Positions 47,025 through 47,461 of a stretch of 52,885 bases of DNA are shown here, piece by piece. How positions within the stretch are numbered: the stretch's first letter is position 1; each line of letters opens with the position of its first letter. The stretch covers positions 1 through 52,885 of the IMG/VR virus record IMGVR_UViG_2802429241_000010. One strand, written 5' to 3'. This DNA comes from a virus. Lineage: Duplodnaviria > Heunggongvirae > Uroviricota > Caudoviricetes. The translations under genes and the position numbers were made by a program. Under the pieces are notes generated by a model that was not told where the DNA came from, made no database searches, and saw only the letters and a list, made by a program, of their open reading frames with translations.

Positions 47025-47461
47025 TTGATTTTCCTTTTATGTATACGGGCTTAAAAGGATACCACCGAGCCTGAAGTGGTGAAAAGACAGGCACATAACA
47101 GCTAAATATTTTCAACCAGAGAGAATCCTTAGCGTTGTGGTGAATGCGGCTCAGCGCACGCGGGTTAAGGTTGAGGCTGACAGTCGACCTTCTGTGGATA
47201 CCCACCCGTCTGGTGTGCAACCTTCGCCAGGCACCGGGAGGCACCCGGCACCACAACTTTATGCTGTGTGTAGTCCTGGCGGTACCAGTTTGTACCATTG
47301 CTTCCGGCTGGTACCGTCCTTTTTACAAAACAGAGAAGAGCATCACCGGACGACGGGCTCATAACCCAATCCATCCGGGCGGCTGCCACCGCAGGTGTTC
47401 TTCTCTGTTTTGTGGAGAAACCAACCGACCTTGCAGGGTCGATATGATGAGGAGCAGCAAA

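Follow-up and report, generated by a model that had tools for sequence, protein, structure and literature searches.

Between the orf33 and yfdP genes of an SfV/e14-type lambdoid prophage of E. coli, the plus strand carries a non-coding region. The whole stretch of DNA analysed, here called the window, is 52,885 nt long and is such a prophage. What is this region, and where in it does the function lie? The initial annotation had described it as GC-rich, highly structured and without a convincing ORF. It placed a perfect 15-bp inverted repeat at the centre and offered a structured leader, a nut-like antitermination or processing site, or a small RNA as possible readings.

The 441 nt around the region match strain MLI104K1 at 100% identity and Shigella phage SfV at 98.6%, and the homologous stretch is carried by about half of the complete E. 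coli genomes (2785/5426). The attachment site may be marked by a tRNA-Thr gene (CGT; 51441-51516, minus strand), which is located downstream of the prophage's integrase end. In plus-strand order the leftward cro gene comes before cI (45718-46392), which is followed by a terminator at 46404-23. A promoter scan detected a PL-like promoter on the plus strand (TTGACA at 46432-37, a spacer of 16 nt, and CATAAT at 46454-59; 11/12 matches), the sole good sigma-70 match upstream of the region on that strand. It is overlapped by two operator-like TGTAC-N7-(G/A)TACA repeats, located at 46438-56 and 46458-75, and further copies of this dyad motif lie in the cI/cro intergenic region (45633-51 and 45683-703). 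Because the overlapping dyads match the cI/cro type, the PL-like promoter looks repressor-controlled. The SfV annotation marks operators at the cI/cro intergenic region only and none at the PL-like promoter. Downstream of the promoter are orf33 (ymfJ-like; 46565-46861, plus strand) and a ymfI-like ORF on the minus strand (46779-47024), whose 5' side ends at 47024. These two ORFs are convergent and overlapping, each matches a PHROG of unknown function, and the layout is the same in e14. On the right, the non-coding region is limited by yfdP (47462-47824, plus strand, by RefSeq mapping), which starts with an ATG at 47462-64 behind an AGGAG Shine-Dalgarno sequence at 47450-54 and is followed by yfdQ, yfdR and the genes leading to xis and int.

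The GC content of the region is 53.3%, compared with 49.8% for the window and 43-46% for the flanks. Since this is only the 61st percentile of equal-sized windows, the description as GC-rich holds locally (60% in the core defined below, 66% in the spacer between the repeat arms) and not overall. The high degree of structure was borne out: the plus strand of 47025-47465 has a predicted folding energy of -174.7 kcal/mol, with z = -5.7 relative to shuffled sequences.

Several ORFs cross the region, namely a 75-aa ORF, a 226-aa ORF and several on the minus strand. RefSeq calls a CDS at 47137-47447 on the plus strand, labelled 'hypothetical protein, frameshifted' and homologous to 'protein YmfH' of K-12 e14; we regard this call as spurious. 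A protein-coding gene, either YmfH or an N-terminally extended YfdP, would explain both annotations, the 226-aa ORF standing open in the yfdP frame, and the phenotype of an over-expressed 'ymfH' clone, which is listed as a trigger of the retron-Sen2 toxin RcaT (bioRxiv 10.1101/2020.06.22.160242). However, the frames that the window leaves open are interrupted in e14, ST64B, L131 and mEp460, frames open in these homologues are interrupted in the window, and each homologue has stops in different frames and indels of 1 nt. Substitutions are flat over the three codon positions in the long hairpin of the region (4/7/5), compared with 25/34/76 in yfdP; like yfdP, yfdQ lacks an even spread. PHROG and Pfam gave no match for the plus-strand ORFs at 47137-47364 and 47144-47461, yfdP starts at an ATG with an AGGAG of its own, and the conservation is accounted for by the compensatory base-pair changes described below. 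The region is non-coding and has no conserved ORF, as the initial annotation had held in substance, and we consider a protein product extremely improbable.

The best-supported element lies some 70-190 nt upstream of the 15-bp repeat. An Rfam scan, run permissively, gave one significant match in the region, to STnc100 (RF02076) at 47104-47326 on the plus strand (43.0 bits, E 3.4e-7). This is 4 bits under the gathering threshold of 47 bits, and the match is absent from the gathering-threshold listing. The homologues in e14 (29.2 bits) and ST64B (35.1 bits) are also sub-threshold. The motifs TGGTGAAT ... CCGGGAGGCACCCGGCACCA, common to the STnc100 consensus and the window, were used to collect relatives from species-representative genomes and viral contigs, which gave more than 200 loci, almost all from Enterobacterales. 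A covariance model, R1, was built from an alignment of 104 representatives with at most 90% mutual identity. R1 matched the window at 47128-47263 over the full model length (1-128) with 80.7 bits (E 6e-22). There is one copy of the core in the window, the next best match having 10.5 bits, and it is on the plus strand only. A minus-strand RNA was rejected, with 8.5 bits by R1 and a weaker fold (z = -3.4).

The core RNA extends from 47134 to 47257 on the plus strand and consists of helix P1 (47134-42/47249-57), hairpin H1 (47146-61), helix P2 (47162-64/47205-07), helix P4 (47208-15/47225-32) and hairpin H5 (47234-48). The invariant motifs of the family are all present, that is, UGGUGAAU after P1, H1 with a GCG loop, and CCGGGAGGCACCCGGCACCA. 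Canonical STnc100 copies among the R1 relatives score 72-200 bits in Rfam, so the window core and canonical STnc100 form one superfamily; the mEp460 core is a more diverged relative (25.7 bits with R1). We conclude with high confidence that the core belongs to the STnc100/PasD family by fold, as a divergent member. This multi-helix RNA is the main feature of the region and was missed by the initial annotation, whose suggestions of a small RNA or structured leader nevertheless agree with it. Identity between E. coli and ST64B is 90% in the core and 85% in the long hairpin, compared with 62% in yfdP and 59% in yfdQ, which makes the non-coding stretch the most constrained part of the neighbourhood.

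We examined the fold by covariation in 132 relatives aligned with the model. As many as 92.6% of the helix cells were paired, compared with 42-47% when partners were slid. Double changes were found in 24 of the 29 core pairs, all five helices covary, and no shuffle attained the observed values. Two caveats apply: the pairs were counted on an alignment that had itself been fitted to the structure, and the invariance of the two search motifs follows from the way the sequences were collected. Column-wise covariation on a MAFFT alignment failed for P4 and the pseudoknot owing to register shifts, and the model-based alignment was used together with a per-sequence test of own against foreign partners.

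The core also contains a pseudoknot. In nearly every member, 5-9 nt after P2 are complementary to the loop of the P4 hairpin, through dozens of different sequence pairs such as AAGGUUG/CAACCUU in the window, CUGGUGAU/GUCACCAG, GCCAGUCUG/UGGACUGGC and UUUGAUCG/CGAUCAAA. The two strands in the window are S1 (AAGGUUG, 47167-47173, after P2) and S1' (CAACCUU, 47218-47224, in the P4 loop), both on the plus strand. The longest duplex with the own partner averaged 6.42 nt, compared with 4.33 nt for permuted partners (z = 20.8; 0 of 10,000 permutations), and a neighbouring control segment gave no signal in the same test. Within the window's own subfamily the pseudoknot covaries too, with at least six different complementary pairs. 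It is absent from the Rfam STnc100 structure and from the consensus structure of the 2026 preprint (bioRxiv 10.64898/2026.05.13.724894). S1 has an alternative local partner in the window, UCGACCUU at 47184-91, and the minimum-energy fold picks this local pairing over S1'; the two pairings (47184-91 or 47218-24) are mutually exclusive.

The subfamily closest to the window has H1 with GCGGC, scores 29-48 bits in Rfam and is operon-embedded in other genera. In coordinates with the element turned to the plus strand, copies lie in L013 (5553-5690), L014 (3782-3921), L018 (1782-1926) and L035 (1993-2124); as stored, the element is on the minus strand, at 2311-2448 in L013, 4080-4219 in L014 and 1529-1660 in L035. 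The copies in L013, L014, L018 and L035 score 38-48 bits in Rfam, at or below the threshold, and the next ORF begins 22-31 nt downstream. Because this closest subfamily is operon-embedded and without a terminator, there is a hint of a cis role for the core. One could go further and see the invariant pseudoknotted core as a portable device that acts in cis by engaging a host factor (RNA polymerase, an RNase or some other) and is used both stand-alone and inside operons, in prophages of at least 40 Enterobacterales genera; taken as a whole, we judge this improbable.

Other arrangements were seen among the loci collected. Canonical STnc100 copies are repeated in tandem, 3-5 of them at intervals of about 220-560 nt, in L112 (2265-3380, adjoining a tRNA cluster), L028 (6323-7018), L085 (5463-6553) and L043 (132-1628), and L199 has a single copy (1028-1222) adjoining tRNAs and the AgvB gene. 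Genes for isrK and C4-type antisense RNAs with a1/b1 targets are present in L005 (21-110; ST64B) and L156 (2471-2669). These are known immunity RNAs and are absent from the window.

The second dyad noted in the region, cggtaccag (47280-47288) and ctggtaccg (47308-47316), is exact and forms a terminator-like hairpin on the plus strand at 47278-47324. The hairpin begins 21 nt after P1 and has a stem of 11-13 bp and a loop of 15-19 nt, followed by C and UUUUU at 47320-24. A terminator downstream of the core was found in 89 of 132 family members, mostly 22-75 nt away. In ST64B and L131 the stem is of unrelated sequence and is followed by the same CUUUUUAC, so that the layout of hairpin plus U-run is kept. 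The terminator is atypical in its large loop and its five U residues, compared with six to eight in canonical members, whose terminators are strong, and both efficient termination and Hfq binding are doubtful for these reasons. A strict terminator scan made no call at 47278-47324 because the loop exceeds 8 nt. Termination at 47324 is probably partial. DicF was rejected as an identity of this hairpin (15.6-28.5 bits, compared with 48), the likeness being only that of a generic hairpin.

Between P1 and the terminator lies a single-stranded linker of 20 nt, UUUAUGCUGUGUGUAGUCCUG (47258-47277, plus strand), which is kept in ST64B though the terminator stem after it is replaced. The linker is a candidate seed. 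A search for targets of the linker and the variable loop among the translation starts of the window gave none above chance, the best duplexes equalling the shuffled expectation.

The 15-bp inverted repeat was confirmed. acaaaacagagaaga at 47325-47339 and tcttctctgttttgt at 47399-47413 are perfectly complementary around a spacer of 59 nt, and the repeat extends to 25 nt at 84% (47325-47349/47389-47413). Since only three inverted repeats with an exact 12-nt seed and arms at most 150 nt apart exist in the window, its presence is not due to chance. The strongest hairpin in the window lies elsewhere, at 9441-9487, where a perfect inverted repeat of 21 bp, TGTTAAGCTGCTATTCTTGCT/AGCAAGAATAGCAGCTTAACA, flanks a loop of 5 nt and has only a short T-run after it.

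As RNA, the repeat forms a long hairpin of 89 nt on the plus strand (47325-47413) with a perfect 15-bp base and a branched top. Including G-U pairs and the U-tract, 25 contiguous pairs are predicted between 47320-47344 and 47394-47418 (z = -5.2). A reading at the DNA level, with the repeat as a protein-binding dyad or as the ends of a small mobile insertion, draws on the perfect symmetry of the 15 bp in DNA and on the way the module travels as a cassette: core, terminator and hairpin precede yfdP in the window, xisE in e14 and other genes elsewhere. However, pairing past the perfect part needs G-U pairs (47340/98, 47343/95 and the U-tract with GGAGA), which exist in plus-strand RNA alone and thus favour an RNA over a DNA dyad. 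In ST64B the pairing is kept by one compensatory change (47335 G>A with 47403 C>U), three further changes keep or improve pairing and one breaks a pair. No flanking direct duplication and no precise empty site at related loci were found, and the 59-nt spacer is itself structured and 85% conserved. We therefore think a DNA-level element very unlikely.

The repeat is thus a real conserved hairpin, and it is not the centre of the locus for which the initial annotation had taken it. Its homologues are confined to the SfV/e14/ST64B/mEp460 group, and phages of the mEp460 and Stx2c types have the same terminator and hairpin as the window. Rfam gave no family for it down to E = 10 save microRNA noise. 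With 25 pairs its duplex has the length of an RNase III processing hairpin (about 20 bp or more, near-continuous), and a role as an RNase III-type processing or stability element is plausible from the predicted fold. A small 6-bp hairpin, predicted at 47426-47441 on the plus strand, after the long hairpin and before the ribosome-binding site of yfdP, is not conserved where another gene replaces yfdP.

The e14 copy (L003 3079-3390; K-12 'ymfH', 103 aa) is a homologous core-terminator-hairpin RNA that scores 65 bits with R1. Its H5 has a 1-nt deletion and a G>A change, and the copy may be decaying. The retron-triggering agent of the e14 'ymfH' clone may be this RNA and not a protein. The stretch needs to be re-labelled as a structured RNA in place of 'hypothetical protein', 'frameshifted' or 'protein YmfH', and phenotypes credited to 'ymfH', such as the retron trigger, may need re-examination as RNA effects.

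How is the RNA made? Among the 40 family members with a promoter match of at least 9/12, the -10 element ends 6 nt before P1 in 23. The best own-promoter match in the window has only 8/12 (AAGACA-17-TATTTT), ends 24 nt upstream of P1 and is not conserved in L013 or L035. As the promoter scan found none either, an own promoter of the core was rejected. In e14, ymfH belongs to the YmfT iModulon with xisE, intE, ymfJ and the e14 lytic genes, and Reg-seq found no steady promoter for it (PMC12133099). The core lies downstream of the operator-covered PL-like promoter, and from the missing own promoter together with the e14 Reg-seq and iModulon data we infer that the RNA is made from PL.

A dyad, ACCAC-N10-GTGGT, is located at 47061-47080, about 50 nt upstream of the core and between it and the start of the ymfI-like ORF. 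It is conserved: e14, Lelliottia L013 and Buttiauxella L035 carry it in front of the core as well. On the minus strand it is terminator-like, but the T-run is not conserved in L013. The dyad may act in RNA, as a hairpin, or in DNA, as a binding site. By Reg-seq, YhaJ has a site close to position -55 relative to the predicted start of e14 ymfH, and this site may be the same dyad.

Our preferred explanation, which we hold to be moderately probable in its entirety, is that the region encodes an STnc100-family small RNA that ends at an attenuating terminator in the early-left transcript. On prophage induction, transcripts from PL would run through orf33 into the core, and many of them would end at the U-tract near 47324. 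One of two products would result: a discrete RNA of about 190-200 nt, whose 5' end would come from processing or from a weak promoter at about 47084-47112, or an orf33 mRNA whose 3' end is structured. Termination near 47324 would also limit transcription into yfdP...xis-int, and transcripts that read through would fold the 25-bp helix (47320-47418) as an RNase III-type or stability element heading the yfdP mRNA. The released RNA might act in trans with Hfq, by analogy with canonical STnc100, EcOnc27 and PasD. Of all the steps this one is the least certain, the short U-tail being a further point against it, and we see a trans-acting Hfq function as possible rather than probable.

Several observations stand against this explanation. 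The Rfam score is sub-threshold (43 compared with 47; 29 in e14 and 35 in ST64B), the location is an early-left operon and not the Q-to-lysis region usual for STnc100/PasD, and the copy lacks the sigma-70 promoter of canonical members, which is located about 6 nt before P1. The terminator has a loop of 15-19 nt and 5 U, and the closest relatives, terminator-less and 22-31 nt before the next ORF, suit a role in cis as well as in trans. A literature search on yfdP and on sRNAs of ST64B returned nothing relevant.

The core might instead be a leader device acting in cis on its own transcript, where it would govern RNA polymerase or RNases and the released RNA would be a by-product. Through attenuation, put-like processive antitermination or directed processing, such a device would set early-left (yfdP...xis-int) expression after PL firing. 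The members in Lelliottia, Pseudescherichia, Scandinavium and Buttiauxella, which fill short intercistronic gaps without a terminator, speak for it, as do the missing own promoter of the window copy, the two mutually exclusive partners of S1, and the position of a terminator directly between PL and the recombination genes where no N-like protein is recognised. The co-regulation of e14 ymfH with xisE and intE (PMC12133099) points the same way. However, transcripts of canonical members contain the same core and yet end at their own terminators, building up as discrete sRNAs (PMC12711010; bioRxiv 10.64898/2026.05.13.724894), which speaks against an antiterminator role of the core. Downstream genes vary between relatives, so the core is not a gene-specific riboswitch either. 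With the single copy in the window and the outcome of the searches for nut and put sites given below, we consider this cis-acting device unlikely, and return to the small RNA with its attenuating terminator for the comparison with known systems.

The region has the place that the PL leader (nutL, RNase III site, N and tL1) takes on the lambda map: in both cases PL is separated from the early-left genes by structured non-coding sequence and a terminator. In the lambda N leader the RNase III site is a long duplex before the first downstream gene, as in the window. Unlike the lambda leader, the window is without boxA/boxB and without a recognisable N. The boxA motif (YGCTCTTWA) has 38 matches in the window compared with 35.5 expected, that is, at chance, and none on the plus strand of 46970-47462; orf33 has no functional family match. 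Lambda boxB is a hairpin of 15 nt, and the window RNA is a pseudoknotted five-helix domain. A lambda-type nut site was rejected.

StxS, described by Sy and colleagues in 2020, is reportedly a short PR'-tR' transcript that acts as an sRNA and comes from a constitutive late promoter. The sequence is unrelated and the window promoter is repressor-controlled, but in both cases a phage operon leader with an early terminator yields, or in the window would yield, a regulatory RNA.

As with put of HK022, PL of a lambdoid phage without N is followed by a structured RNA encoded in cis. HK022 put is about 70 nt long, has two stem-loops and occurs at both PL and PR (PMC9378689), unlike the single copy in the window, which has no PR-side partner. 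R1 with filters off detected nothing in putL/putR (best match in 24.5-37.5 kb of HK022 4.9 bits, E 1.7), and identity with put was rejected. The nut-like antitermination suggested for the region thus finds no support in boxA, in put or in copy number, and the canonical RNAs are terminated.

PasD is a prophage-encoded, Hfq-associated and northern-validated structural relative of STnc100 (Zhu, Shabalina and Storz; bioRxiv 10.64898/2026.05.13.724894), and PasD1 and PasD2 were found in enteropathogenic E. coli by RIL-seq (same preprint). Unlike the window copy, PasD is near Q, LpxR and lysis genes, and we liken the two by description and not by sequence. STnc100 overlaps the Hfq-bound sRNA EcOnc27/sRNA103 of E. 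coli O157:H7, downstream of stx2B, and canonical members of its family accumulate as discrete terminated RNAs (PMC12711010). H1 of the window is GCGGC/GCACGC, in contrast to CCCCC/GGGG in STnc100. Unlike STnc100, which lies downstream of Q, stx or tRNAs, the window copy is in the early-left operon after cI, is sub-threshold, lacks its own promoter, has a weak-looking terminator and is followed by the extra conserved long hairpin. Like STnc100, it has UGGUGAAU after P1, the GCG loop of H1, P4 and the invariant CCGGGAGGCACCCGGCACCA, which comprises H5 and the 3' strand of P1; it also has a hairpin and U-run after the core, and is prophage-borne in Enterobacteriaceae. Apart from the annotation, the family range, the fold and the re-reading of phenotypes, this is an ordinary phage regulatory region. 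STnc100/PasD is no longer confined to the late region: in phages of the SfV, e14, ST64B and mEp460 type its range now takes in the early-left operon, and it includes copies inside operons. The five-helix fold with its covarying pseudoknot gives the family a concrete and testable structural model.
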